From Candidatus Doudnabacteria bacterium (GTDB lineage: Bacteria; Patescibacteriota; Doudnabacteria; UBA920): 64,000 nucleotides of DNA. The notes beneath the pieces were generated by a model. That model had not been told where the DNA came from. It made no database searches and was given only the letters and a program-made list of their open reading frames with translations. The stretch lies in assembly GCA_003151625.1 (NCBI GenBank), contig PLYC01000007.1:2929-66928 (forward strand), given 5' to 3'. This document shows, in pieces, positions 6,893 to 64,000 of the stretch; position 1 is the stretch's first letter; every line of letters begins with the position of its first letter. Both the position numbers and the translations under genes were made by a program.

Positions 6893-7060
6893 ACAAATTC
6901 GAAATACGAATACCTGCCTCGACTTGACTGCCGAGTCAAGGCGGGTCGAAATTCGAAACAAATTCGAAATTTAAAATTTTAATATTTAAAACAGGTTTTG
7001 AATTTACTCATTTAGAATTTAAATATTGTTTCGTATTTCGGATTTAGTGCTTCGGATTTA
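6893..7060. repeat. Large imperfect palindromic AT-rich region built from 'attcgaaat / atttcgaat' units
   Basis: aaattcgaaatacgaata ... cgaaattcgaaacaaattcgaaattt mirrored by gtttcgtatttcggattt...cttcggattt. Includes hairpin gcctcgacttgactgccgagtcaaggcgg. Related regions at 48150-48290 and 62633-62775. Confidence 0.45.
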
Positions 7061-10604: not shown

Positions 10605-10694
10605 AAATAGTCCTTTCAATTTTCTACTAAATACTAAATTTGGTGATTGCCACGTTTAGTATTTTTAGTCACTTTAGTATTTAGTAGAGGGTTG

Positions 10695-10985: not shown

Positions 10986-11078
10986 AAGATATTTGTTGAT
11001 ATTTAGGGATATTAGTAGATATTATTTTGTCACCCAATATCTATTAATATCTCAATTTCAATTAATATCTTTTTTGAA

Positions 11079-11834: not shown

Positions 11835-12404
11835 TCACGTTTTTCCATACTTACTAAATAATTCCTCCAAAATGTTCTGGTAGCTTTGGCGGATATTTTG
11901 GTCGCGTCCGACCTCCAAAACTTCATCGTTAATGTTGGTAGCCGCCGTTGTCCAGTTGTAAGACCCGCTGGCGTAAGCTTTTTCCGTAACCAGAGCCTTC
12001 ATGTGCATAATGCCCGAGTGATCCTGCTCATAGACAGGTATGCCGTCGTCGCGCAGAGCGTCTATTATTTGTTTTTGCCCGGGAGCTTGGTTGTATTGGT
12101 CGCGATCGGTAATGCCCACTACGGTCAGGCCGCGGTACTTGGCCGCAATTAAAGCCTGTTCTATATCCTGCCTGGTAAAAGTGTAAACCGCGAAGTAAAC
12201 AAATTTATCCGCGTCCCGGATTTGATTAATAATTTCATCGTTCAACGCGTGATCCTGATTGTAGTAAACGCTGATTTCATGCGTTGGCAAGTAGCGGTAA
12301 GAATAGTAAAATTGTCCACAAAGCGCGATGAGTGAAATAATAACAATCAAATAAACTATGTCTTTTTTGTTTTTCATATTTGTGTCAGGAAATTGTGAAA
12401 TCAA
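11835..12404 (-). CDS. Phospholipase D-family (Nuc-like) protein with N-terminal TM
   Basis: HMKALVTEKAYASGSYNWTTAA = HxK(x4)D/E(x6)GS.N PLD/Nuc signature. Confidence 0.5.
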   Translation of the reverse strand: MISQFPDTNMKNKKDIVYLIVIISLIALCGQFYYSYRYLPTHEISVYYNQDHALNDEIINQIRDADKFVYFAVYTFTRQDIEQALIAAKYRGLTVVGITDRDQYNQAPGQKQIIDALRDDGIPVYEQDHSGIMHMKALVTEKAYASGSYNWTTAATNINDEVLEVGRDQNIRQSYQNILEELFSKYGKT

Positions 12405-12439
12405 GAAATTAGGAAATTGGGGAGCGTGTCCCCAATACC

Positions 12440-12874
12440 TTAATATCCCAATTTCTTAATTTCCTTTTTAATTTCTCTTTTTTGTATATACTCTCGTTTA
12501 TCTGCCTTTTTTCTCGCTTTGCCTAAGCCTATCCTCATTTTTATCAATCCGCGATTACCCAAAAAAATATCCAGGGGAATTACTACCAACCCTTTTTCTT
12601 TTCCGAGCAATTTGTTTATTTCCGATTTGTTTAAAAGAAGTTGTCGGGTTTGGGTCGGCTGGTATTTTTCATCGGGCGCGTACTTGTAAGGCCCAATATG
12701 GCAATTAATTAAACTGGCCCCCCTGGCCGACACGGTTACATAAGCCCCGGCCAAAGAAACATTGCCGCCTTTAACGGATTTTACTTCTGCCCCGCTCAAT
12801 ACCAAACCGGCAGTAAAGTTTTCTTTAATATCGTAATCAAACCTTGCTCTCTTATTGTCCGCAAAAATTTTCAT
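12440..12874 (-). CDS. smpB: SsrA-binding protein SmpB
   Basis: NKRARFDYDIKENFTAGLVLSGAEVKS...GNVSLAGAY, with a Lys/Arg-rich C-tail typical of SmpB. Confidence 0.9.
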   Translation of the reverse strand: MKIFADNKRARFDYDIKENFTAGLVLSGAEVKSVKGGNVSLAGAYVTVSARGASLINCHIGPYKYAPDEKYQPTQTRQLLLNKSEINKLLGKEKGLVVIPLDIFLGNRGLIKMRIGLGKARKKADKREYIQKREIKKEIKKLGY

Positions 12875-12991: not shown

Positions 12992-13257
12992 GCGACGTAG
13001 AGCGAGAGAAATGATATGCAGCATATCATTTCCGAGCCGACCTATTCAACTCCGCTCAAGGCCCCGAGTGCAGATCGAGGGGGAGCTTCCGCCAAAGGCG
13101 GATCCTCCTCCCTTCGAGGGTCTGAGGACCCCTCAGGGTCTCGAACGACCGGCGGAAATACAGGTTCAATACTTCGTCCCGCCGACGGCGGAACTGCGAA
13201 GTGCAGGCAGTTCATTGCACTAATACCTCGCAGCTCTGCGGATAGCGAACCTTTATT
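12992..13257 (+). promoter_or_regulatory. Conserved structured leader element, copy 3, carrying a nested approx 110-nt GC-rich multi-hairpin insertion
   Basis: GCGACGTAGAGCGAGA, then hairpin gaaatgatatgcagcatatcatttc, then CGAGCCGACC ... AATACAGGTTCAATACTTCG ... GCACTAATACCTCG ... GCGAACCTTTATT. The first 86 codons of predicted ORF 13016..13795 are translation of this element. Confidence 0.5.
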
Positions 13258-13273
13258 AAATAAGCAACATTTT

Positions 13274-13795
13274 ATGCTGGAAGATTACAATCTTGCTGAC
13301 TCCATTTTGGCCTTTTTTTCCGAGACGCTGAATTTATTGCCGAGGCCTTTGGAAATGCCTTACCAATGGGTTAAACGTAACAAAGGGATGAATTATAGGA
13401 GTTACTACGATTCCGTGCAGGGCTTAAAGCGTCGCGGGGCGGTAAAATTGACAAAAAAGCGGGATAAAACATTCATCCAGTTAACGGAAAAAGGTTTATT
13501 GGATGTTTTACTGCTGAAAGCGGGCGTGAGCAGAGAAAGGGTCTGGGATGGGAAGTGGAGAGTGTGTATTTTTGACATTCCGGAAGAAGCTCACTTACAG
13601 CGGGACTATTTTCGCCGCCTGCTTAAGCAGTACGGTTTTTATAAATTGCAGGCCAGTGTTTTTGTGCACCCGTTTACATTGAACCGAGAGGCAATAGCAT
13701 ACTTAAGTAAAACAGGTCTGAATAAATATATTCGTTTTTTAAAAGTTGAAGAAATGGACAATGATGAGGATTTAAAGAAGTTTTTTAACCTATGA
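13274..13795 (+). CDS. PaaX-like (PaaX C-terminal domain) putative transcriptional regulator
   Basis: RERVWDGKWRVCIFDIPEEAHLQRDYFRRLLKQYGFYKLQASVFVHPF matches the PaaX_C consensus. Start reassigned to in-frame ATG at 13274. Confidence 0.5.
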   Translation: MLEDYNLADSILAFFSETLNLLPRPLEMPYQWVKRNKGMNYRSYYDSVQGLKRRGAVKLTKKRDKTFIQLTEKGLLDVLLLKAGVSRERVWDGKWRVCIFDIPEEAHLQRDYFRRLLKQYGFYKLQASVFVHPFTLNREAIAYLSKTGLNKYIRFLKVEEMDNDEDLKKFFNL

Positions 13796-13936: not shown

Positions 13937-15706
13937 ATGCCAAGTGAAACATCTAAAAATTTTATAAACCACCTTTTGTCATCGGCTTTGTCCGGGCTCA
14001 AGCTGACTTCCTATTTGGACGTTTTAGATATTACGCCCCCATCCAATCCTGATTTTGGCGATTATTCCAGCAATGCGGCTTTAATTTTGTCAAAAAAACT
14101 AAAAATTAACCCTAAAGAAATCGCCGGGAAAATTGTTGACGCCATAAATAATATAGATTTAGAAGGCAAACTGGAATCGGTTACCGAACAGGGCGGGTTT
14201 ATTAACTTTAAACTTTCACAAAAATTTTTGCTTAATAATCTTGGTACTATAATTGACCAACGGGACTTGTACGGATGTTCGGTGTTGGGTGAAGGGAAAA
14301 CTGTAGTTGTCGAGTATTTCCAAAATAACGTAGCTAAGCCGCCTCACGTAGGGCACCTGCGTTCGTCCGTAATTGGCGATTGTCTTTTAAGAGTTTTTAA
14401 ATCGCAAGGCTACAAAACTATTTCCGATACTCACATTGGTGACTGGGGCGTCCAGTTCGGCATTTTGCTTTACGCGTTTAAGACAATGAAGCCGGATATG
14501 GAAGTTTTGGAAAAAGACCCGATTAACGAGTTAAATAAACTTTATGTAGCCATGTCCGCAAAAATAGAAGCCCAAGCCGAGCTTCGGGATTTAGCCAAAG
14601 CGGAATTTAAGAAGCTGGAAGACGGAGATGAGCAGAACCGCAAACTCTGGCAGTTGTTTGTGGACGAATCCTTAAAAGATTTTGAACGCTACCGGATTTT
14701 GCTTGGAGTCTTGCCATTTGATTATAATTTGGGAGAAAGTTTTTACGAAAAACATATGCCGGAAGTTTTGGCGGAATTTCAGGAAAAGAAACTTATAACA
14801 AAAGGCGAAACAGGGGAGCTTTATATTGATTTGGAAAGCTTCGGTCTTGGCCGCTGTATTTTGGTAAAAAGCGACGGAGCGACCACTTACCATTTGCGGG
14901 ATTTTGCCACTTACCTTTACCGACGCAAACAGTTTAATTTTTTAAAAAATCTGTACATTGTAGACAATCGTCAGTCGCACCATTTTAAACAGCTATTTAA
15001 GTCGCTCGAACTTGCAGGCTATCCGGCCGAAAAAGACAGTACCCATATTGATTTGGGATTTATGAGTTTGCCCGAAGGTGCTATTTCCACGCGCAAAGGC
15101 ACAACAATTAGTCTGGAGAATTTAATTACCGAGGCCAACAAGCGCGCTTTAAAAATTATTGAAGACAAGAATCCGGATTTGGAAAATAAAGAAGCGGTCT
15201 CTAAGCAAGTCGCGCTGGCGGCCATAAAATATTTTGATTTATCACATAATCGTAAAACAGAAATAATCTTTACTTGGGACAACGCTTTGTCGTTTGAGGG
15301 CAATACAGGGCCGTATTTGCAGTACACGCACGCGAGAATTCATGGAATATTGCGTAAATCGCGGAATAATACGGAACTTAACGCGGAAAATGCGGAACGT
15401 GGTTTTCCGCGCCTTTCCGCGTCAGATTCCGCGTCTTTCCGCGACACCGAACTCTCCGTTCTTCGCAAACTCATCCAATTCCCCGAAGTCGTTACCCAAG
15501 TCTCCCAGGACTATTTCCCCAACAACCTCTGTAATTATTTATTTGAACTTTCCCAAACCGTTAACTCTTTTTATCAGGAAGTTCCCGTCCTAGCCGAAAC
15601 CGACGAAACCCTAAAATCCTTCCGCCTAAATTTAATTACCGCCACCGCGCAAGTTATAAAAAATGGGCTTTATCTGTTGGGAATAGAAGCGCCGGAGGAA
15701 ATGTGA
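13937..15706 (+). CDS. argS: Arginyl-tRNA synthetase
   Basis: PHVGHLRS (HIGH-class motif), ArgRS N-terminal domain, DALR anticodon-binding C-terminal with YTHARIHGILRK. Contains the in-frame repeat insertion at 15358-15443. Confidence 0.9.
   Translation: MPSETSKNFINHLLSSALSGLKLTSYLDVLDITPPSNPDFGDYSSNAALILSKKLKINPKEIAGKIVDAINNIDLEGKLESVTEQGGFINFKLSQKFLLNNLGTIIDQRDLYGCSVLGEGKTVVVEYFQNNVAKPPHVGHLRSSVIGDCLLRVFKSQGYKTISDTHIGDWGVQFGILLYAFKTMKPDMEVLEKDPINELNKLYVAMSAKIEAQAELRDLAKAEFKKLEDGDEQNRKLWQLFVDESLKDFERYRILLGVLPFDYNLGESFYEKHMPEVLAEFQEKKLITKGETGELYIDLESFGLGRCILVKSDGATTYHLRDFATYLYRRKQFNFLKNLYIVDNRQSHHFKQLFKSLELAGYPAEKDSTHIDLGFMSLPEGAISTRKGTTISLENLITEANKRALKIIEDKNPDLENKEAVSKQVALAAIKYFDLSHNRKTEIIFTWDNALSFEGNTGPYLQYTHARIHGILRKSRNNTELNAENAERGFPRLSASDSASFRDTELSVLRKLIQFPEVVTQVSQDYFPNNLCNYLFELSQTVNSFYQEVPVLAETDETLKSFRLNLITATAQVIKNGLYLLGIEAPEEM
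15358..15443. repeat. In-frame palindromic CGCGGA-repeat insertion inside argS
   Basis: cgcggaataatacggaacttaacgcggaaaatgcggaacg followed by four TTCCGCG units (ttttccgcgcctttccgcgtcagattccgcgtctttccgcg). The first 40 nt are approx 88% identical to a segment of ileS (17486-17527). Encodes SRNNTELNAENAERGFPRLSASDSASFRD between conserved ArgRS blocks. Confidence 0.6.
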
Positions 15707-16513: not shown

Positions 16514-19500
16514 ATGACGGAAGAAAAACCGCAAACATCATCAACCCCCAATTTTAATAACCTGGAAAAGGGAGTTTTACAGTTTTGGGATGAGAATAAA
16601 ATTTTTGAAAAGTCTTTGGAACAGACCAAGGACAATGAGCCTTACATTTTTTATGATGGGCCGCCTTTTGCCACGGGACTGCCGCATTATGGCCATATTT
16701 TGGGGTCTACGGTTAAAGATTCCTTTGGCCGCTATTATACGATGAAAGGCCGGTTCGTCCGGCGCGTTTGGGGCTGGGATTGCCACGGTTTGCCCATAGA
16801 AAATATTGTTGAACAGCAGTTAAAAATTTCCGGAAAAAAACAAATAGAGGAACTCGGCGTGGATAAGTTTAACCAGGCTTGCCGGGAAAATGTTTTAAGG
16901 TTCGTGGATGAATGGGGAAAAATGGTCAAGCGCATGGGGCGCTGGGTGAACTTTGACAATTCCTATAAAACCATGGACACCACCTATATGGAGAGCGTGT
17001 GGTGGTCTCTCCAGCAGATTTGGAACAAGGGATTAATTTACGAAGACCGCAAAGTTTTGCTTTACTGCTCGCGCTGTGAAACTCCAATTTCCAATTTTGA
17101 AGTGGCAATGGACAACAGCTACCGTGACGTGACCGAGGAATCGGTTTACGCTAAATTCAAAATGCCCAAGGGCCAGAGAATTATTAACGACCTGACCAAC
17201 GATAAGACTTTTGTCTTAGCCTGGACAACTACGCCATGGACCTTGCCCGGCAATACATCGCTGAACGTCGGAGCGGATATAGTTTATGTAATGATCGAGA
17301 TGGAAAATGGCCCTGCCCGCCAGTCGCCTGACGGCTCCAGCCGGATGGCAGGCGGGGAAAGATATATTTTGGCCAAGGAACGATTGTCTGTAATAGATGG
17401 TTCTTACGAGACTGTCGCCGAATTTCCGGGCAGGGCAATTGCCGGGCTGGAATATGAACCGTTATATCCCGGCGTTATCCCTTCATCGCGGAATAATGCG
17501 GAATTTAACGCAGAAGGACGCGGAAGTAATCATCCTGAATTTGTGGGTGATCCCGCCAAATCGCATCACATTTATATTGCCGACTTTGTTACCACCACCG
17601 ACGGAACCGGGGTTGTTCACAATGCGGCCATGTATGGAGAAGAAGACTATCAACTGGCCAAAGAAAAAGATTTGCCTCGAATGGATATGCTTGACCACAA
17701 GGGCCGCTATTTGGAATATTTGCCGGAGAGTTTGCGCGGCGTATTTTTTAAAGACGCGGAAAAAATAGTGCTTAAGGAATTGGCGGCCAAAAATTTGGTT
17801 TATAAGACCGAACATTATACTCACAGCTACCCGCACTGCTATCGATGCGCTACTCCGCTGTTTTATAACGCGCTGCCGGCCTGGTTTATTAATATACAAA
17901 AAATAAAATCCCAACTGCGCAAACTAAACTCCGAAGAAATAAATTGGCAGCCGGAACATCTAAAAATGGGGCGTTTTGATAAAAGCATAGAGTCCGCGCC
18001 GGATTGGAATATTTCCAGAAACAGGTTTTGGGCTACGCCATTGCCGTTTTGGAAATGCGGAAACGATGAATGTAAAAATGTAATTTGTGTCGGATCAGTT
18101 GATGAATTAAAGGAAAAATCAAATAACTTTGGCCAGGTTTACCCAAATTTTAATTCGGAAAATCTGCAGATGACCGATTTGCATCGCCCTTACATAGACC
18201 AAGTGGTCGTAACCTGTCCGAAGTGCGCGGATAATATGAAGCGCGTGCCTGAAGTTGTGGACTGCTGGGTGGAAAGCGGTAGTATGCCGTTTGCCGAGTT
18301 GCATTATCCGTTTGCAAACCAGGAATTATTTAAGAAACGTTTTCCGGCCGATTTTGTGGCCGAATATATTGGCCAAGTCAGGGCTTGGTATTATGTTATG
18401 CTTGTGGTCTCCACAATTGCTTTTGAACACGCCCCGTTTAAAAATATTGTTACAACAGGAAATATTTTGGCGGAAGACGGCAGTAAAATGTCCAAGAGCA
18501 AAAATAATTATCCTGACCCGTGGATTTTAATAGAAAAATATGGAATAGACGCATTGAGGTTTTATCTTTTAACCAGCCCGGTTATGAATGCCGATGATGT
18601 AAATTTTTCCGAAAAAGGCGTGCAGGAAATCGGCCGCAAGGTAAATATGCTGGTTTACAATGTCTGGAGCTTTTTGCGCCTTTATACCAAAGATAAATTC
18701 AGCGGCGAACTTCCGGTATCGGAAAATATTTTAGACAGATGGATTATTTCCCGGCTTAGCCAAGTCCACAAACAAGTCACGGGATTTTTGGATGTTTATG
18801 ACACCGTGCGCGCCGGCAAAGCCATGACTGCTTTTATAGACGAACTTTCTACCTGGTATTTGCGCCGCAGCCGCGACCGCATAAAAAATAACGACGAGGC
18901 CGCGAAAATCGCGTTGGCTACTTTGGCCTATGTTTTAATAGAACTTTCCAAAATGTTGGCGCCGTTTATGCCATTTTTGGCGGAGTTTATTTATCGCGAT
19001 CTCACTGGCCAAGAATCTGTACATTTAACATTGTGGACAGTAGAAATTGCCGGCGATAACGAAGTCGTCCGCCAAAAAATGGCTTTTGTTAAAGATTTGG
19101 TGGAAAGCGGCCTTTCTTTGCGTAAAGAAGCCGGCTTTAAAGTTCGCCAGCCCCTGGCCGAGGTTGAATATCATATTAAGAATAAAGATCTCGTGCTGGA
19201 CGCGGATTTTGAAAAACTTTTGGCCGATGAGCTCAACGTTAAATTAATAAGCAACCGTCAGGATTTTGTGGCCAAAGGCGGCTGGGCGTACAAGGACACC
19301 CCGGGTTTTAAACTTCAAATTAACCTGGAATTAAGCGAGGATCTAAGGCAGGAAGGTTTGGCTAGGGAAATCGAGCGCCAAATTCAGGACTTAAGAAAAA
19401 AGAGCGGCCTTAGAGTGGGAGAACTGGTGGATGTTTATTACAATACCCAGGACGAGAAACTAGAGGAAGCTTTGCTGAAATTGGTAGATCGCAAAAAAAC

Positions 19501-19603
19501 TTTTGTCAGCCAAATCAGCAAAAGCCTGGAAGTGGAAGTGGATTTTGAAATTCAAAGCCAGATTGAAGGCAAAACTGTTTGGTTGGGGATGATAAAAATA
19601 TAG
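16514..19603 (+). CDS. ileS: Isoleucyl-tRNA synthetase
   Basis: HYGHILG (HIGH), GSKMSKSKNN (KMSKS), CP1 editing region, 1029 aa. Confidence 0.95.
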   Translation: MTEEKPQTSSTPNFNNLEKGVLQFWDENKIFEKSLEQTKDNEPYIFYDGPPFATGLPHYGHILGSTVKDSFGRYYTMKGRFVRRVWGWDCHGLPIENIVEQQLKISGKKQIEELGVDKFNQACRENVLRFVDEWGKMVKRMGRWVNFDNSYKTMDTTYMESVWWSLQQIWNKGLIYEDRKVLLYCSRCETPISNFEVAMDNSYRDVTEESVYAKFKMPKGQRIINDLTNDKTFVLAWTTTPWTLPGNTSLNVGADIVYVMIEMENGPARQSPDGSSRMAGGERYILAKERLSVIDGSYETVAEFPGRAIAGLEYEPLYPGVIPSSRNNAEFNAEGRGSNHPEFVGDPAKSHHIYIADFVTTTDGTGVVHNAAMYGEEDYQLAKEKDLPRMDMLDHKGRYLEYLPESLRGVFFKDAEKIVLKELAAKNLVYKTEHYTHSYPHCYRCATPLFYNALPAWFINIQKIKSQLRKLNSEEINWQPEHLKMGRFDKSIESAPDWNISRNRFWATPLPFWKCGNDECKNVICVGSVDELKEKSNNFGQVYPNFNSENLQMTDLHRPYIDQVVVTCPKCADNMKRVPEVVDCWVESGSMPFAELHYPFANQELFKKRFPADFVAEYIGQVRAWYYVMLVVSTIAFEHAPFKNIVTTGNILAEDGSKMSKSKNNYPDPWILIEKYGIDALRFYLLTSPVMNADDVNFSEKGVQEIGRKVNMLVYNVWSFLRLYTKDKFSGELPVSENILDRWIISRLSQVHKQVTGFLDVYDTVRAGKAMTAFIDELSTWYLRRSRDRIKNNDEAAKIALATLAYVLIELSKMLAPFMPFLAEFIYRDLTGQESVHLTLWTVEIAGDNEVVRQKMAFVKDLVESGLSLRKEAGFKVRQPLAEVEYHIKNKDLVLDADFEKLLADELNVKLISNRQDFVAKGGWAYKDTPGFKLQINLELSEDLRQEGLAREIERQIQDLRKKSGLRVGELVDVYYNTQDEKLEEALLKLVDRKKTFVSQISKSLEVEVDFEIQSQIEGKTVWLGMIKI
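17486..17527. repeat. In-frame copy of the argS CGCGGA-repeat segment inside ileS
   Basis: tcgcggaataatgcggaatttaacgcagaaggacgcggaag versus argS tcgcggaataatacggaacttaacgcggaaaatgcggaacg. Encodes SRNNAEFNAEGRGS. Right arm is degenerate. Confidence 0.55.
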
Positions 19604-26047: not shown

Positions 26048-26141
26048 TCGCTGATATTTACGCTGATATGTCGCTGATTCTGAAGTTTAGATTCAGCGTT
26101 GTATCAGCGGTGGTGTTAAAAGCAGCGTTCGTTCAGCGTTT
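26048..26141. repeat. CGCTGA-box palindromic element, copy 1 (within glnII 5' leader)
   Basis: CGCTGAtatttaCGCTGAtatgtCGCTGA ... then TCAGCG x4 at approx 10-11-nt spacing. Second copy at 58621-58722 shares an identical 18-mer cgctgatatgtcgctgat. Confidence 0.55.
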
Positions 26142-45916: not shown

Positions 45917-45957
45917 ACAATGGGCACCATTGCGCAGCGCAATGGTGCCCATTGTTG
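45917..45957. repeat. CAATGGGCACCATTG hairpin repeat, copy 1 (terminator of hppA on the minus strand)
   Basis: aacaatgggcaccattgcgcagcgcaatggtgcccattgtt. Second copy at 56635-56675 differs only in loop. Confidence 0.55.
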
Positions 45958-45970
45958 GGTTTGCAGACCG

Positions 45971-48040
45971 TTACGGTTTCAGGAATTTTACTAGCAACAG
46001 CGCCACAATATTTATTATTTTTATCATCGGATTTATTGCCGGGCCCGCGGTGTCTTTGTACGGGTCGCCGACGGTGTCGCCGGTAACAGCGGCTTTGTGG
46101 GCATCGCTGCCTTTGCCCCCGTAGTTGCCTTCCTCAATATATTTTTTGGCATTGTCCCAGGCCGCGCCGCCCGTGGTCATGGAAATTCCCACAAATAATC
46201 CGGTCACTATACAACCAACTAAAAGTCCGGCTAAAGCCGCGGCTCCCAAAAACAATCCAACTAAAATCGGCACCACAACCGGAATTAAAGCCGGAATAAT
46301 CATTTCCTTAATGGCGGCTTTGGTGACAATATCTACAGCGCGCGAATAATCCGGTTTGGCCGTACCTTCCATAATCCCTTTAATTTCCCGGAACTGGCGG
46401 CGCACTTCTTCCACAACGGCTTTAGCCGCATTGCCGACTGCGGACATCGCGATTGATGCGAACAGGTAAGGCAAAAGTCCGCCAATAAGCAAGCCCACTA
46501 AAACTCTGCTGTTGGAAAGATCAAACACAGTGGAAATTCCGTTCTTAGCAAGTTCCTGGGTGTAAGCGGCAAACAAAACCATAGCGGCTAAACCGGCCGA
46601 GGCAATGGCGTATCCTTTGGTAACGGCCTTAGTGGTGTTTCCAACCGCGTCCAGCGGGTCGGTAACGTCGCGCACGCTCTGGTCGAGTCCGGCCATTTCG
46701 GCAATGCCGCCGGCGTTATCGGTAATCGGGCCAAAAGCGTCTATGGCCACCACAATTCCGGTTAACGACAACATGCTCATTACGGTCAGCGCGATTCCAT
46801 ACAAACCGGCCAAATGGAACGACAGCAAGATTGCGCAAACAATTACCAAAACCGGAGCGGCCGTGGACTGCATGCCAACCGCAATGCCCTTAATAATGTT
46901 GGTGCCGTGTCCGGTGGTTGAAGCCGCGGCAATATCCTTAACCGGGGAAAAAGATTTGGAAGTATAGTATTCGGTAATTATGGTTATAAGTCCGGTGACT
47001 GCCAATCCAATTAGCGCGCAGTAAAAAAGATTACTAACCGTATATGTGCCGTTGTCCGCCATAACTTTTTGCGTTATCGGCCAAAAAGCTATGGCGCTTA
47101 AAATTCCGGTAACCGCGAAACCTTTATACATCGCGCCTATAATATTTTTGGACTTGCCAAGCTTAACAAACCAGGTTCCGACAATAGTGGTAACAATGGA
47201 AACGGCGCCAATCATTAACGGATAAATTATGGCGTTTGTGTAGCCCGGAAAAAGCGCTGACCCCAGTAGAATTACCGCCACGGCGGAAACCACGTAAGTT
47301 TCAAATAAATCCGCGGCCATACCGGCGCAGTCTCCAACATTGTCGCCCACGTTGTCGGCAATAACGCCGGGGTTGCGCGGATCATCTTCCGGAATACCGG
47401 CCTCAACTTTGCCAACCATATCGGTTCCAACGTCTGCCCCTTTGGTAAATATCCCTCCGCCCAAACGGGCAAATACGGAAATTAAGGAAGCGCCAAAAGC
47501 CAGACCCGCCAAAGCGGAAAGATCAAAGTCTCCGCCGGCCGTGCATTGGTTGACGTCGCCAAGATTAATGCAGGGACCGCCGGCAGTTTTGGTAGCCATT
47601 AAAAACCCGGTCACAGCCAACAGACCGAGCCCGACTACAAATAAACCGGTTACTGAACCGCCTTCAAAAGCTAAAGACAATGCCGAACCCAGCCCTTTTT
47701 TAGCGGCTTCGGCTGTGCGCACGTTTGCCCTAACCGAAACATTCATCCCGACAAATCCGGCCACCGCGGAAAGTACCGCGCCTAAAACAAAACTTTCCAT
47801 AGTGTGCGCAGAAAAATGCGCCAACCACATTAAAATTAAAATTATCACGGCCACCAGCCCTACGGTTTTATATTGTCTGGACAAGTACGCTTTGGCGCCG
47901 TCCTGTATGGCGGCGGCAATTTCCAGCATTTTTCCGTGGCCGGCGGGCTGTTTGAGTATCTTAAAAATTAAAAACACGCCGTAAAGGAGGGCTAAAACCG
48001 CGGCTCCCAAGGCGTAAAACAAATACGTGGTCTCATTCAT
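45971..48040 (-). CDS. hppA: Membrane-bound H+/Na+-translocating pyrophosphatase
   Basis: [40 protein letters not shown], 689 aa, about 15 TM helices. Confidence 0.9.
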
Positions 48041-55915: not shown

Positions 55916-56632
55916 ATGCCCAGAGAAACTAAATGCCAGGCTATCGTTTTAAAAAAGCAGCCTTTTAACGAGGGTGATGAAATTATTACTTTTTATTCCA
56001 GGGAGCTGGGGAAAATTCGCTGTTTGGCAAAATCCGTTAAATCGTCCAAATCCAAGCTTCAGCAAAAATTGCAGGGATTATTTTTGGTGAATTTAAGTTT
56101 TACCCAGGGGCGTTTGCCAAAAATTATTTCCGTTGAGCCGGTGAAGGTTTTTTCCGGAATGCGGGAAAATTTGGAAAATTTAAAGCGGGCTTTTTACGCG
56201 CAGGAGCTGGTGCTAAAATTTACCCCCGATGAGCAAAAAAACGAACCGCTGTTTGTTTTGCTGGAAAATTTTTTGGAATTTTTAAACGCGCAAACCACGG
56301 AAGAAATTTTAAATTTTGCCTTGGCAAAATTTAAGCTGGAGATTTTACAAACTTTGGGTTTGGGCGTGCATAATAACGCCAAAGCAGGGGACGGCAAAGA
56401 AATATTTTTTAGCCCAACGTTGGGTGGGTTTGGGAATGCGGTATCGTTCGATGGATTAAAAGTCAGCCCGGCGGTTTATGGGCTGTTTTTGGAATTGCCG
56501 CTGATTGAATTCGGAGAACTAAAAGAAGTTAAAAATATTGGTGGGGAAAAAGATTTGCAAAACCTTTTGTCCCAGTTTATTGAATATCAACTGGAAAGAA
56601 AGGTTAGGTCGGAAAAGTTTTTAAGACAATGA
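55916..56632 (+). CDS. recO: DNA repair protein RecO
   Basis: N-terminal OB-fold pattern KCQAIVLKKQPFNEGDEIITFYSRELGKIRCLAKSVKSSKSKL. Overall RecO length and helical C-terminus. Confidence 0.65.
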   Translation: MPRETKCQAIVLKKQPFNEGDEIITFYSRELGKIRCLAKSVKSSKSKLQQKLQGLFLVNLSFTQGRLPKIISVEPVKVFSGMRENLENLKRAFYAQELVLKFTPDEQKNEPLFVLLENFLEFLNAQTTEEILNFALAKFKLEILQTLGLGVHNNAKAGDGKEIFFSPTLGGFGNAVSFDGLKVSPAVYGLFLELPLIEFGELKEVKNIGGEKDLQNLLSQFIEYQLERKVRSEKFLRQ

Positions 56633-56634
56633 GC

Positions 56635-56675
56635 AAACAATGGGCACCATTGTGCCGCACAATGGTGCCCATTGT
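56635..56675. repeat. CAATGGGCACCATTG hairpin repeat, copy 2
   Basis: aacaatgggcaccattgtgccgcacaatggtgcccattgtt. Confidence 0.55.
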
Positions 56676-58567: not shown

Positions 58568-58620
58568 AAAGTTGAAAGTTGAAAAACCCCGGTCGATTCC
58601 GGGGTTTTGCTTATAAAACC

Positions 58621-58722
58621 GCTGATATGTCGCTGATGGGCACGCTAATAAAACGCTGAGCGGTTAATGACAGCTTCAGCGTTTATTCAGCGGTTGCAGT
58701 TATTCAGCGTTATTTCAGCGGT
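58621..58722. repeat. CGCTGA-box palindromic element, copy 2
   Basis: CGCTGAtatgtCGCTGAtgggcaCGCTaataaaaCGCTGA ... TTCAGCG x4. Lies between convergent genes. Confidence 0.55.
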
Positions 58723-60466: not shown

Positions 60467-62626
60467 ATGGATCTCTCCTCACTTAACGACAAACAAAAAC
60501 AGGCTGTAACCGCGCCGTTCGGGCCGGTGTTGGTTTTGGCCGGGCCCGGCAGCGGCAAGACCAAGACTTTGACCCACCGCATTGCCTATATTATAGAGAA
60601 GCGGCTGGTCAAACCCGAGAACATTTTGGCCTTGACCTTTACCAACAAGGCGGCCAAGGAAATGAGGAGCCGGGTTGCAAACCTTTTGGCCAGGCATGTA
60701 GGCGCGTCGGAAAGCCTGACTATGGGCACCTTCCATTCGGTTTGCGCCAAAATTTTGCGCCATGAAATTACCGCTTTGGGCTATGCTTCGGATTTTGTGA
60801 TTTTTGATAAAGACGACCAGCAAAAAGTCTTGCGGGAAATTTTGGAAGATTTAAGGATAGACAGTAAAAAAATGCCGCCGGCTTTGTTTGGCGCTTTAAT
60901 TTCGCGCGGCAAAAATTTGTTACAGTTGCCGGCTGATTTAAATTTGGGACTGGAGTCGCCCATGCGCGAAAAATTGGCCGAGGTCTACACCCGTTATCAG
61001 GATGCGCTGTATAGGCAAAACGCCCTGGATTTTGACGACCTGCTTTTGCTGACCGTTAAAATTTTTGAGAATTTCTCCAAAGTTTTGGCAAAGTATCAAA
61101 AAAAATTTAGTTACGTGCTGGTGGATGAATACCAGGATACAAACCAGGTGCAATACCGATTGCTATCTTTACTGGCCACGCATCATAATATTTTTGTCGT
61201 GGGCGACGACGCCCAGAGCATTTATAAGTTCCGCGGCAGTGACATTACCAACATTTTGAATTTTGAAAAAGATTACCCGGAAGGCCTGGCGATTAAGCTG
61301 GAACAAAATTATCGGAGTACCAAAAATATTTTGGAAGCCGCCCAGAAAGTTATTGAAATGAATCCCGAGCAAAAGCCAAAAGTCCTGTGGACGGAAAATG
61401 TCCAGGGAGAGAAAATTATTTTAACCTGCGAGGAGGACGAGCGAGCCGAGGCCGAGTTTGTGGCGCGAAATATTGTGAAATTGGCCGTTGTAGGGGCGGG
61501 TTTGAAACCCGCCCGTACCGAGGACTTGGAATATGCCGATGACGATTCTCAAGCCGAACCCAAACCGTTTTCTATACTTGATAGGTTTATTAAGGCAAAA
61601 ATGATGCAGGCCCAATATTCCCAATCTTTTGGCCGGACTTTGGTGCCACAGCTTCCCAAGAAGCACGAAAGCCTCAAGGAGTTCTGCATTTTGTACCGCA
61701 CCCACGCGCAGTCCCGCGCGCTTGAAGAAGTTATGATAGAAGCGTCCATACCGTATCAGATTGTCGGCGGATTAAAATTTTACGAACGCAAAGAAATCAA
61801 GGACATTTTGGCTTACTTGAGATTAACTTTAAATTATCGCGATTTAGTATCGCTTCGGAGGGTCATCAATGAACCGCCGCGCGGTATTGGCGACAAGTCG
61901 TATGCCGAAATCCGTGACTTTATTTTAAATTTGGGTGGCAGGGACAAGGAATTGCTTTTTAAAGATTTCCGGATTGCCTTTGCCGAAATTAAAATCCAGC
62001 CAAAAGCCTGGGCATCTTCCCAGGAGTTTTTTAGGATGATCGAGGAGTTTTCCGATTTTAACGAAAAATTTTCCTTGCCGGAGCTGGTCAAGTTAATTCT
62101 GCGAAAGACCGGTTACGAAAAGTATTTGCGCGACGGCTCGGAGGCGGGGGAATCCCGTTGGGAAAATGCCGAGGAGCTTATTAACGTGGCTCATAAGTTT
62201 GGAAATTTGGGATGGCGCGAGGCTTTGCAGGAGTTTTTGGAAGAAGTCGCGCTGATTTCGGAAATAGACCAAAAAGACGAAAGCAAAGACGCGGTAACTT
62301 TAATGACTCTGCATTCGGCTAAAGGTTTGGAGTTTGATAACGTATTCTTTGTCGGTTTGGAAGAAGGAATTTTGCCTCACTCCAGAAGCTTAATAGACCC
62401 GGCGGAGCTTAGCGAGGAAGTCCGCCTGGCTTATGTCGGGCTGACCCGCGCGCGCAAACGGCTGTTTTTAGTATATACCCACAACCGCCGCGGGTTCGGC
62501 AATGTGCAAATTAACCAACCCTCGCGAATTTTAAAAGTTTTGCCCAAAGGAGTGGTGGAATACCGCGGCATGGCTAAGGAACATTTTAAAAACGTTGACG
62601 AAGAAGTGACTTATGAATTAACTTAA
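60467..62626 (+). CDS. uvrD: ATP-dependent DNA helicase UvrD/PcrA
   Basis: Walker A AGPGSGKT. TFTNKAAKEM. DEYQDTN. All SF1 motifs through VGLTRAR. An extra approx 60-aa insertion with hairpin sits at 61486-61690. Confidence 0.9.
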   Translation: MDLSSLNDKQKQAVTAPFGPVLVLAGPGSGKTKTLTHRIAYIIEKRLVKPENILALTFTNKAAKEMRSRVANLLARHVGASESLTMGTFHSVCAKILRHEITALGYASDFVIFDKDDQQKVLREILEDLRIDSKKMPPALFGALISRGKNLLQLPADLNLGLESPMREKLAEVYTRYQDALYRQNALDFDDLLLLTVKIFENFSKVLAKYQKKFSYVLVDEYQDTNQVQYRLLSLLATHHNIFVVGDDAQSIYKFRGSDITNILNFEKDYPEGLAIKLEQNYRSTKNILEAAQKVIEMNPEQKPKVLWTENVQGEKIILTCEEDERAEAEFVARNIVKLAVVGAGLKPARTEDLEYADDDSQAEPKPFSILDRFIKAKMMQAQYSQSFGRTLVPQLPKKHESLKEFCILYRTHAQSRALEEVMIEASIPYQIVGGLKFYERKEIKDILAYLRLTLNYRDLVSLRRVINEPPRGIGDKSYAEIRDFILNLGGRDKELLFKDFRIAFAEIKIQPKAWASSQEFFRMIEEFSDFNEKFSLPELVKLILRKTGYEKYLRDGSEAGESRWENAEELINVAHKFGNLGWREALQEFLEEVALISEIDQKDESKDAVTLMTLHSAKGLEFDNVFFVGLEEGILPHSRSLIDPAELSEEVRLAYVGLTRARKRLFLVYTHNRRGFGNVQINQPSRILKVLPKGVVEYRGMAKEHFKNVDEEVTYELT

Positions 62627-62632
62627 TAAAAA

Positions 62633-62775
62633 ATTCGAAATCCGAATATCGAAACCCGAAACAATATCTAAATTCTAATACTTAATATTTAAACGGGGAC
62701 ATTTAGGGTTTTGGATTTACAATTTAGATATTTGAATTTGTTTCGAATTTCGATATTTGGATTTCGGATTTAACA
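62633..62775. repeat. Large imperfect palindromic 'cgaaat/atttcg' intergenic region
   Basis: aaattcgaaatccgaatatcgaaacccgaaac ... gtttcgaatttcgatatttggatttcggattt. Confidence 0.45.
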
Positions 62776-62778
62776 CAT

Positions 62779-63684
62779 ATGGACATTGACCAGCTAAAAA
62801 AACTTTTAAGAAGCTTCAACCTAAAACCCAACTTCACTTATGGGCAGAATTTTTTGATTGATGATTTTGTTTTGCAGGACATTGTGGACGCGGCGGAAGT
62901 CAGTAAAGATGATGCTGTTTTGGAAATCGGGCCGGGGATTGGTAGTTTAACCAGATTACTTTGCGAGCAAGCCGGTTTTGTGCTAAGTGTTGAAAAAGAT
63001 CCTAAATTTTTCCCTATTTTAAAAAGCGTTAAAAAAGACTTTCCGGAAAATTTTCGGTTTGAAATCGCCGATGCCTTAGAGTATGACTTCCAAAAAACGC
63101 TGATCTCACGCGGATCTAAAACTGCAACCGCGGATATAAACGCGGATCCGCGTTCCGATCTGCGTAGCGGATCCGCGACCAAATCCGCGGGATACAAGGT
63201 TGTTGCCAACATCCCGTACTTTATTACCGGCAAGATTCTTAAAATGCTGATGACGGCAAAAAACAAACCGACGTCCATAACAATCTTAACGCAAAAAGAA
63301 GTAGCAAGGAATATTTCCGCCAAAGCGGGGGACTTAAGCATTTTGGCAATTTCCGTTCAGCTGTTTGGGAAACCGAAAATTATTCAAACGGTTTTAGCCA
63401 AAAATTTTTACCCGGCGCCAAAAGTTGACAGCGCGATTGTAAAGATTGATTTGTTTAAGAAACCAAAATATATTTTGGCTGATGAAAAAATTTTTTTTAA
63501 AATTGTTAAAGCATGCTTTTCGGGCAAGCGGAAACAAATTCATAATACCCTGGTAAATAATTTGGGATTGGAAAAAAATTCGGTTTTGGAAATTTTATCC
63601 TCGCTAAAAATAAAACCCGAGGCACGACCCCAGGAGTTATCGATTCAGGAATGGATTGAGCTAACAGATAAAATTTTCAATTAA
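62779..63684 (+). CDS. rsmA: 16S rRNA (adenine1518/1519-N6)-dimethyltransferase
   Basis: GQNFLID, LEIGPGIGSLT, VVANIPYFIT. Has an in-frame repeat insertion at 63108-63192. Confidence 0.85.
   Translation: MDIDQLKKLLRSFNLKPNFTYGQNFLIDDFVLQDIVDAAEVSKDDAVLEIGPGIGSLTRLLCEQAGFVLSVEKDPKFFPILKSVKKDFPENFRFEIADALEYDFQKTLISRGSKTATADINADPRSDLRSGSATKSAGYKVVANIPYFITGKILKMLMTAKNKPTSITILTQKEVARNISAKAGDLSILAISVQLFGKPKIIQTVLAKNFYPAPKVDSAIVKIDLFKKPKYILADEKIFFKIVKACFSGKRKQIHNTLVNNLGLEKNSVLEILSSLKIKPEARPQELSIQEWIELTDKIFN
63108..63192. repeat. In-frame CGCGGAT-repeat palindromic insertion inside rsmA/ksgA
   Basis: cgcggatctaaaactgcaaccgcggatataaacgcggatccgcgttccgatctgcgtagcggatccgcgaccaaatccgcggg. Encodes SKTATADINADPRSDLRSGSATKSAG ahead of the conserved NIPY motif. 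Confidence 0.5.
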
Positions 63685-63749
63685 CAATTTTCAATTTCCA
63701 ATGAACAGCAGTCGTACGTGTTTGAAAATTGATAAATGAAAATTGAAAA

Positions 63750-64000
63750 TTATTTTAACCGGACTTCATCTCCGGTTTTTATTTTGTTTCTGTCCGCCCA
63801 CCCAGCGCTAACTTCCAGGACCTGATTTACGGGTGCCGGCGGCCTGTATGTCGGCAGGGGATCGTTCGGGGTGTTTGGGTGGCTTACGTTGGGAGTAATA
63901 CCAATAATTTCTCCGCCGGCTATCCAAATAAAATCCAAATCAAATTTCATGTCTTTCATCCAAAAGTTCGGTATTGCGGCATTGCCTCCGCCGGAGGCGG
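63750..64000 (-). CDS. DUF192 (COG1430) family protein, 5'-truncated by window end
   Basis: FWMKDMKFDLDFIWIAGGEIIGI ... YRPPAPVNQVLEVSAGWADRNKIKTGDEV matches DUF192. Frame stays open to nt 64000. Confidence 0.5.
   Translation of the reverse strand, partial: ASGGGNAAIPNFWMKDMKFDLDFIWIAGGEIIGITPNVSHPNTPNDPLPTYRPPAPVNQVLEVSAGWADRNKIKTGDEVRLK

Follow-up and report, generated by a model that had tools for sequence, protein, structure and literature searches.

An in-frame palindrome of short repeated units occupies a hypervariable loop of KsgA in Doudnabacteria

Results

A palindrome of seven-nucleotide units lies within ksgA

The ksgA (rsmA) gene of a Doudnabacteria genome carries an imperfect palindrome within its reading frame. 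The gene lies near one end of a 64-kb stretch of DNA (contig PLYC01000007.1; the window) that comes from a metagenome-assembled genome. Its product is the 16S rRNA dimethyltransferase, which matches solved KsgA chains in the PDB at an E value of 3e-39 and whose homologs carry the RrnaAD domain (PF00398). Homologs of the genes next to it bear the name Candidatus Doudnabacteria. The original prediction placed an in-frame palindrome of CGCGGAT and ATCCGCG units ahead of the NIPY motif, and we find that it is indeed there, free of stop codons and ending six codons (GYKVVA) upstream of the motif. Its parts, and the gene that holds them, are as follows.

62779 to 63684, forward strand: ksgA/rsmA coding sequence, the host gene, an open reading frame of 301 amino acids, with PF00398 (RrnaAD) in its homologs, a PDB match and an AlphaFold2 (AF2) model
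63097 to 63192, forward strand: in-frame imperfect palindrome inside ksgA, 96 nucleotides or 32 codons, stop-free, TLISRGSKTATADINADPRSDLRSGSATKSAG
63098 to 63104, forward strand: degenerate forward unit CGCTGAT, one mismatch, conserved in five orthologs
63109 to 63115, forward strand: forward unit 1, CGCGGAT, exact match
63129 to 63135, forward strand: forward unit 2, CGCGGAT, 5' strand of the outer stem (63128-63135 with 63183-63190)
63141 to 63147, forward strand: forward unit 3, CGCGGAT, start of the inner stem (63141-63151 with 63167-63177)
63146 to 63152, forward strand: reverse unit 1, ATCCGCG, overlapping forward unit 3 to give the palindrome CGCGGATCCGCG
63158 to 63164, forward strand: degenerate reverse unit ATCTGCG, one mismatch, which would pair with a forward unit through G-U or G-T
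63171 to 63177, forward strand: reverse unit 2, ATCCGCG, 3' strand of the inner stem
63183 to 63189, forward strand: reverse unit 3, ATCCGCG, 3' strand of the outer stem

The unit and its complement are those originally described, but the count of five is not: there are three exact units in each orientation, or four in each if the degenerate ones are included. Exact units occur 18 times in the window, compared with 7.4 expected (standard deviation 2.8), a number reached in none of 100 shuffles, and six of the 18 are packed within 81 nucleotides of ksgA. Other occurrences, such as those at 47309 and 47376, belong to ordinary coding sequence. A layout of at least three forward units followed by at least three reverse units, of whatever sequence, is found at six places in the window and never in the 30 Markov controls. 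According to Tandem Repeats Finder, the two arms have periods of 11 and 12 nucleotides (1.9 and 2.6 copies, 76-90% matches), and the dominant symmetry of the segment is inverted. In the predicted fold a 5x5 internal loop separates stems of 8 and 11 bp, and its energy is -45 kcal/mol compared with -30.9 +/- 3.1 kcal/mol for shuffled sequences (z -4.5; none of 200 shuffles as low). The stems of this hairpin are the units themselves, the spacers between them being non-complementary (ATAAA facing ACCAA). The palindrome is open in frames +1 and -2 only, and its GC content is about 0.56, compared with 0.42 for the 2 kb around it.

The segment is an insertion in a loop modelled as disordered

We compared the product with its best 120 homologs, which are Doudnabacteria-like and 61-100% identical to it. 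The corresponding loop measures 10-12 amino acids in 47 of them (39%), which are thus without insert and typically read xFFKEQGYKS, 13-19 in 11 and 20-51 in 62. Against the solved Bacillus subtilis KsgA, residues 17-105 and 140-299 align and the alignment breaks exactly at residues 106-139. Because of these two observations we take positions 63097-63192 to be an insertion in KsgA that is absent from part of the phylum, and the alignment of orthologs proposed with the original prediction thus supports reading the segment in that way. The insert (spanned, for example, by the peptide SKTATADINADPR) is predicted to be read through as about 22 extra residues. The net gain is 23 residues over insert-less Doudnabacteria orthologs (33 rather than 10 in the stretch from DFQ to YKVV) and 21 over the B. 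subtilis protein (34 query residues opposite 13), so that the figure of about 26 given originally was slightly high.

An AF2 model built on 60 orthologs has an overall predicted local distance difference test score (pLDDT) of 88.7. Residues 113-139 are modelled as coil with a pLDDT of about 48-62, between a helix (104-112) and the strand that ends in NIPY (140-144), and the rest of the fold scores above 85. In the model, then, the insert occupies a structurally permissive, disordered surface loop that connects helix C to strand 4 in the methyltransferase fold. To judge from how class I methyltransferases are usually folded, the loop leading into the NIPY strand presumably sits at the edge away from the cofactor site.

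The KsgA loop is hypervariable across the phylum

The peptides inserted at this site fall into at least eight unrelated classes of 13 to 51 amino acids. A loop of exactly 33 amino acids recurs in 14 of the 120 orthologs, which between them span at least five unit types. Inserts of five or more amino acids are found at only two other internal positions of KsgA among these orthologs, in five sequences and in one. An ancestral feature of the protein, present at this site with a conserved peptide in every homolog of the phylum, would have told against an insertion; instead 47 of the 120 sites are empty and the filled ones hold at least eight unrelated types. A neighbour-joining tree of KsgA shows the insert classes scattered over its branches and is too weak for counting gains and losses.

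The folding comparison covered the DNA of 16 insert-bearing Doudnabacteria ksgA loci, a small sample. A search of genome contigs with the single KsgA protein returned distant homologs only (27-39% identity), and a search of metagenome contigs with an alignment returned five Doudnabacteria loci out of 80 among the matches listed. Fifteen of the 16 inserts fold better than their dinucleotide shuffles (z -1.7 to -9.2), and for 13 at most two of 200 shuffles are as stable. The exception, L108, still has three forward and three reverse CGAA/TTCG units. The insert-less ksgA of L010 folds no better than shuffles. In KsgA proteins of other lineages, about 40% identical to that of the window, the loop is normally short, and the four longest loops among them (L015, L016, L051 and L058) once more correspond to strong hairpins (z -4.1 to -5.3). 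These four inserts are built from repeat types of their own genomes, for example the EIAS...LAMT type.

The units are conserved and the peptide is not

Five orthologs of the CGCGGAT type (L089, L091, L092, L093 and the window), with flanking protein sequence 67-79% identical, align without gaps. Identity at codon positions 1, 2 and 3 is 0.76, 0.87 and 0.49 in the rest of the gene and 0.78, 0.70 and 0.76 in the insert, and none of 2000 random samples of flank codons reaches the third-position value of the insert. Unit columns are 91% identical and spacer columns 51%; with the window left out to guard against circularity the values are 90% and 49%, and none of 92 circular shifts of the unit mask reaches that difference. 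Within the spacers, codon positions 1 and 2 show identities of 0.52-0.54, having diverged like synonymous sites. Since the units are constant at any codon position while the spacers drift at the synonymous rate, the constrained feature is one of the nucleic acid and not of the peptide. These data show no detectable protein-level constraint on the insert peptide and show that the mutually complementary units are preserved, and with them the capacity for a beaded hairpin in the DNA or in its transcript. Going beyond the original prediction, then, the ksgA site is a phylum-wide hypervariable hotspot at which the conserved things are the units. The consensus units also stay exact complements of each other in three related types: CGCGGAT/ATCCGCG, CGCGGAA/TTCCGCG (L009) and CGCTGAA/TTCAGCG (L094).

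A test for covariation under a fixed structure, with eight sequences, found 74% of cells able to pair compared with 31-49% for slid partners, a value no different from that of column shuffles, the sequences varying too little to support covariation. Folding energies of the sense and antisense strands do not differ over 17 genic palindromes (p 0.80), which favours a DNA-level property over a structure specific to the mRNA. Rfam gave no match inside ksgA, and in the flanking intergenic hairpins only sub-threshold look-alikes of microRNA precursors.

The closest relative, L094, is 94% identical to the window in the amino acids and 91% in the nucleotides of the ksgA flanks, and over 3.7 kb the identity is mostly 97-100%. 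The two inserts, by contrast, share only 56% identity, and the divergence reaches about 40 nucleotides into both flanks. Further divergent patches lie at 61470-61650 and 62900-62970, both at insert polymorphisms, and at 61100-61190. This pattern fits short patches that would have been imported by homologous recombination. The CGCGGAT type is common to orthologs with flanks of only 67-79% protein identity while L094 differs in type, and to judge from these alignments the history of the insert is decoupled from that of the gene.

We note two further observations on the same pair. At 61100-61190 (930-1020 in L094) the differences are scattered, mostly synonymous and without indels, with 72-82% identity in a uvrD gene that is otherwise 95-100% identical, which suggests a recombination tract or assembly mosaicism. 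At 2797-2838, L094 has an extra in-frame KsgA insert of about 39-42 nucleotides after residue 64, ALHQSPHGGSGTGQ, which is shared by P0055, P0063, P0071 and P0080 and which the window lacks (at about 62966); the flanks there form one of the divergent patches.

Related palindromes occupy argS, ileS and uvrD

The original prediction also drew attention to an insertion of equal repeat logic in argS and ileS. That insertion exists, and its unit type has been found at the ksgA site of another genome. The two copies of the window are these.

15355 to 15446, forward strand: sister element in argS (13937-15706), CGCGGAA/TTCCGCG palindrome, in frame
17485 to 17547, forward strand: copy in ileS consisting of the CGCGGAA 5' arm only, in frame, peptide NAEFNAEGRGS..., absent from ileS of L090

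The argS insert is a palindrome of four CGCGGAA and four TTCCGCG units. When the inserts were compared by BLAST with 162 kb of Doudnabacteria DNA, the ksgA gene of L009 proved to hold an insert of the CGCGGAA type that matches the 3' arm of the window's argS insert at 39 of 43 nucleotides (about 90%), spacers included. It also matches an insert in uvrD of L009. Further matches are copies of the 5' arm alone in ileS of the window and uvrD of L096, and both have GCGGAATTTAACGCRGA. The CGCGGAA type thus totals five copies in four genes and three genomes, and the 5' arm of the ksgA element in the window bears a likeness to this family. Among 1.84 billion protein representatives, a profile built from six insert peptides retrieved only four unrelated repeat proteins, and a query of 91 concatenated insert residues retrieved no candidate.

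Like KsgA, these genes vary at fixed places. In ArgS the segment between HGILRK and SVLRKL ranges from 31 to 83 amino acids in 120 orthologs (P0125-P0244), nearly every sequence being different, and the modal length of 36 is common to unrelated sequences. Many of these inserts resemble translated repeat hairpins (FQISNSKSQI..., SRLEVQGSSLEPSTLQLEP, GRHPERSEGS...QNDA, SPPFQGGVP...GGGG). In an ArgS ortholog that is 62% identical overall, 25 of 29 residues of the insert peptide are identical to those of the window. IleS of the window (16514-19603) differs from that of L090 by four in-frame insertions, two per genome: those of the window are a GCCCTGCCCGCC...GGCAGGCGGGG hairpin (17306-17360) and the CGCGGAA half-element (17485-17547), and those of L090 (116-300) measure 44 and 13 amino acids. 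In uvrD/pcrA (60467-62626), an in-frame hairpin, GGGGCGGGTTTGAAACCCGCCC, at 61492-61516 encodes VVGAGLKPART; it is absent from L094 despite flanks of about 97% identity, and L096 has four direct CGCGGA units at the site, which looks like a second hotspot. Filled and empty sites are therefore seen in related genomes both for ileS (window and L090) and for uvrD (window and L094). These comparisons show several fixed hotspots in housekeeping genes of Doudnabacteria, namely in ksgA, argS, ileS and uvrD, which hold different palindromes in different lineages.

An open reading frame of the PaaX_M (Cas2-like) family (13016-13795) has 259 amino acids in the window compared with 174-177 in L090 and L096. 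Its extra N-terminal stretch of about 80 residues coincides with very GC-rich hairpins at 13031-13240, and might reflect a wrongly called start or else a further palindrome block in frame.

Intergenic DNA holds hairpins of like architecture

Between genes we find the same architecture made from other, mostly AT-rich, units, each hairpin having its own (GATATT, GAAATT, CGCTGA twice, ATTTTC, ACTAAA and AAATTC).

10988-11069, 12389-12475, 26049-26138, 58620-58720, 63685-63750, 10625-10686 and 6949-7020: intergenic unit-repeat hairpins

Most reading frames are closed in these intergenic copies, and the genic copies are open in the frame used. The hairpin at 58620 adjoins an ordinary terminator between convergent genes, and orthologous spacers in L090, L096, L095, L009 and L011 contain different hairpins. 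The spacer between uvrD and ksgA (62631-62771; 2457-2608 in L094) contains a long AT-rich unit-repeat hairpin of -51 kcal/mol. Here window and L094 are identical except for eight substitutions within 15 nucleotides of the 3' arm, and each 3'-arm variant complements a different 5'-arm unit, so the change looks like a templated, register-shifted event and not like point mutations. A palindrome based on CAATGGGCACCATTG is present twice, at the ends of genes (45918-45954 and 56626-56675), and represents another small dispersed hairpin family.

Discussion

We have found that the ksgA gene of a Doudnabacteria genome contains an in-frame palindrome of repeated units at a site that is hypervariable across the phylum. 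The reading that we lean towards, with somewhat better than even confidence, sees in the segment a coding palindrome, dispersed and non-autonomous, like those first known from Rickettsia, tolerated in a permissive loop and kept at the level of the nucleic acid, possibly with reshuffling by recombination. Its arms are arrays of a seven-nucleotide unit, with a period of about 11-12 nucleotides, and of the complement of that unit. New copies would arise from other copies in the genome through copy-and-paste or gene conversion, survival would be limited to stop-free copies that preserve the frame and land in tolerant loops, and alleles might then pass between lineages by homologous recombination of short patches.

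Several observations weigh against this reading. No copy of the CGCGGAT type was found outside ksgA, either in 162 kb of Doudnabacteria DNA or among 1.84 billion protein representatives. There is no recognizable target-site duplication or terminal signature in the pairs compared (ileS in window and L090, ksgA and uvrD in window and L094), where the flanks are diverged or replaced, and there is no transposase among the 10 open reading frames of the window that were screened. A selfish insert should decay, yet the units are about 90% identical where synonymous sites are saturated; for units to persist at that level, either selection or repeated conversion from other copies is needed. The conservation test used five sequences and the folding test 16 DNA loci, which are small samples, and the mosaic of window and L094 could in part reflect a strain-chimeric assembly. 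We note also that a search of viral contigs with two element patterns gave 11 hits, none of them a unit-repeat hairpin and all chance matches, so that carriage by phage is unsupported.

The least improbable of the alternatives, though one that we consider unlikely, is that the palindromes originate and are renewed in place, slippage multiplying a unit in one arm and hairpin-templated strand switching copying it to the other, without any transposition. Renewal of this kind would account for unrelated unit types of equal loop length (the 33-residue loops of KsgA and the modal 36 residues of ArgS), for the concerted change from CGCGGAT to CGCTGAA in both arms with spacers such as ACTGCA partly retained, for the substitutions in the hairpin 5' of ksgA and for the lack of strand asymmetry in folding. 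It fails, however, to explain near-identical copies, spacers included, across argS, ksgA, uvrD and genomes. Template switching also predicts complementary spacers, whereas ATAAA faces ACCAA, and the positions of the units are not the same in the L009 and window inserts. We think it improbable, too, that the palindrome is a signal used by the host, whether an RNA element for pausing, stability or processing of the ksgA transcript or a DNA array of binding sites at helical-turn spacing. The conservation of the units beside neutral spacers, their period of 11-12 nucleotides and the recurrence of hairpin inserts at the KsgA loop in unrelated lineages (L015, L016, L051 and L058) would suit such a signal. 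Nevertheless, 39% of orthologs do without the insert and close relatives have unrelated sequences or different units there, the sense RNA is no more stable than the antisense and has no Rfam match, the same architecture is found 5' of genes, beside terminators between convergent genes and inside four genes, and so many different units could not be read by a single DNA-binding protein.

That the insert is an adaptive loop of KsgA in the candidate phyla radiation (CPR), for example one making contact with the unusual CPR ribosome, with its palindromy incidental, seems to us very unlikely. The insert is always in frame, free of stops and at the protein surface, as such a loop would be, but the first two codon positions of its spacers have diverged like synonymous sites, the site accommodates at least eight unrelated peptide classes of widely differing length, the segment is modelled as disordered and conservation tracks nucleotide units, not codons. 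Finally, we give almost no credence to a chance low-complexity patch or an assembly artefact. Although the source is a metagenome-assembled genome, the identical protein is on record from two or three contigs, including scaffold_2030 of the metagenome assembly WOOD18-1 (ENA/NCBI), five further assemblies from other samples have an insert of the CGCGGAT type in this position and in frame, and the clustering of units and the energy of the hairpin lie far beyond those of shuffles.

Taking the dispersed coding palindrome as the preferred reading, one may go further, to a proposition that we hold only tentatively and regard as possible rather than probable. Doudnabacteria, and perhaps the CPR generally, may harbour a distinct class of unit-repeat palindromes, in which a unit of 6-8 nucleotides recurs about once per helical turn and is followed by the complementary array, and which colonize intergenic DNA and, within essential genes, permissive loops at fixed places. 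Their units would be actively maintained, by selection or by an undescribed hairpin-dependent machinery of conversion or transposition, and disordered loops of core proteins would be continuously rewritten as a result. If so, the ksgA site would be a cassette-like hotspot and not the scar of a single insertion. Whatever the standing of that proposition, the sites described here offer a natural system for studying how selfish or self-renewing DNA hairpins persist in essential genes and how disordered protein segments originate. In practice, where core proteins of the CPR vary in length or contain odd low-complexity peptides, the source can be DNA repeats and not protein adaptation, which is of relevance to annotation, phylogenomic alignments and structure prediction.

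Comparison with known systems

The attC sites of integrons are recognized by structure and not by sequence, and form a hairpin of two paired boxes with an unpaired spacer. The ksgA fold, two stems separated by an internal loop, is reminiscent of this, but we rule out an attC site: the ends of 63097-63192 have no RYYYAAC/GTTRRRY core sites, the element lies inside an essential gene, and there is neither a cassette array nor an integrase near ksgA. Borg tandem repeats create disordered protein regions from perfect head-to-tail direct repeats (PMC9879509). There, as here, a repeat process at the nucleotide level adds disordered segments, evolves fast and arises independently at many sites. A coding tandem repeat of the Borg type, the period of which is usually divisible by three, is nevertheless ruled out, in that ksgA has short direct arrays followed by their inverted complement, with a period of 11-12 nucleotides that is not tied to codons.

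REP, BIME and REPIN sequences, which are mobilized by RAYT transposases, are extragenic, 20-40 nucleotides long and marked by a conserved GTAG or CGTC tag (PMC3733652). They share with the ksgA element the character of GC-rich imperfect palindromes that can pair, inverted, into longer hairpins. Identity with them is ruled out, the ksgA element being intragenic, 96 nucleotides long and without a conserved tag; the single GTAG, at 63164, is GTAA or GTAC in L089, L091, L092 and L093. Bacterial miniature inverted-repeat transposable elements such as ERIC, BOX, RUP, Correia and Nezha are known to form fusions with open reading frames (PMC3184786). They are likewise small, non-autonomous and hairpin-forming, and lie between genes or, occasionally, fused in frame. 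For the palindromes described here, target-site duplications are not evident in the pairs compared, where the flanks are diverged or replaced, and no partner insertion sequence was found among the 10 open reading frames of the window that were screened. They differ, too, in that terminal inverted repeats distinct from the body were not found and in that the unit sequence varies from element to element.

The closest likeness is to the Rickettsia palindromic elements (RPEs; Ogata et al. 2000), which are summarized in PMC10969869 and PMC2996958 and have counterparts in Wolbachia and in Methanocaldococcus jannaschii. That housekeeping genes can carry palindromic repeats in frame is well established (PMC10969869, PMC3184786, PMC2996958). 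RPEs, too, are short palindromic repeats (about 100-150 bp) that sit in frame and without stops in unrelated housekeeping genes, in unstructured surface segments, with several families per genome, genic and intergenic, and with no transposase known. In Doudnabacteria we find in-frame, stop-free inserts in four housekeeping genes (ksgA, argS, ileS and uvrD), and, in the case of ksgA, a hairpin more stable than shuffles (z -4.5) and a predicted coil at residues 113-139. Dispersal in several copies is seen for the CGCGGAA type, while the CGCGGAT type is seen in ksgA only. There are also differences, for the present host belongs to the CPR, and the element, at 96 nucleotides, is shorter and is made of arrays of a seven-nucleotide unit with non-complementary spacers, where an RPE is a continuous palindrome. 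Many families hit one loop across the phylum, and the units are conserved and the peptide is not, whereas RPE families are described by their conserved peptide. We therefore say that the ksgA element appears to work like RPEs, likening it to them by behaviour and not assigning it as a member by sequence. Coding palindromes have so far counted as a peculiarity of Rickettsia and a handful of other genomes, and here they occur in a reduced CPR genome. What is new relative to earlier coding palindromes is the beaded unit-repeat architecture, the reuse of one loop throughout a phylum, the conservation of the units in place of the peptide, and the CPR host.

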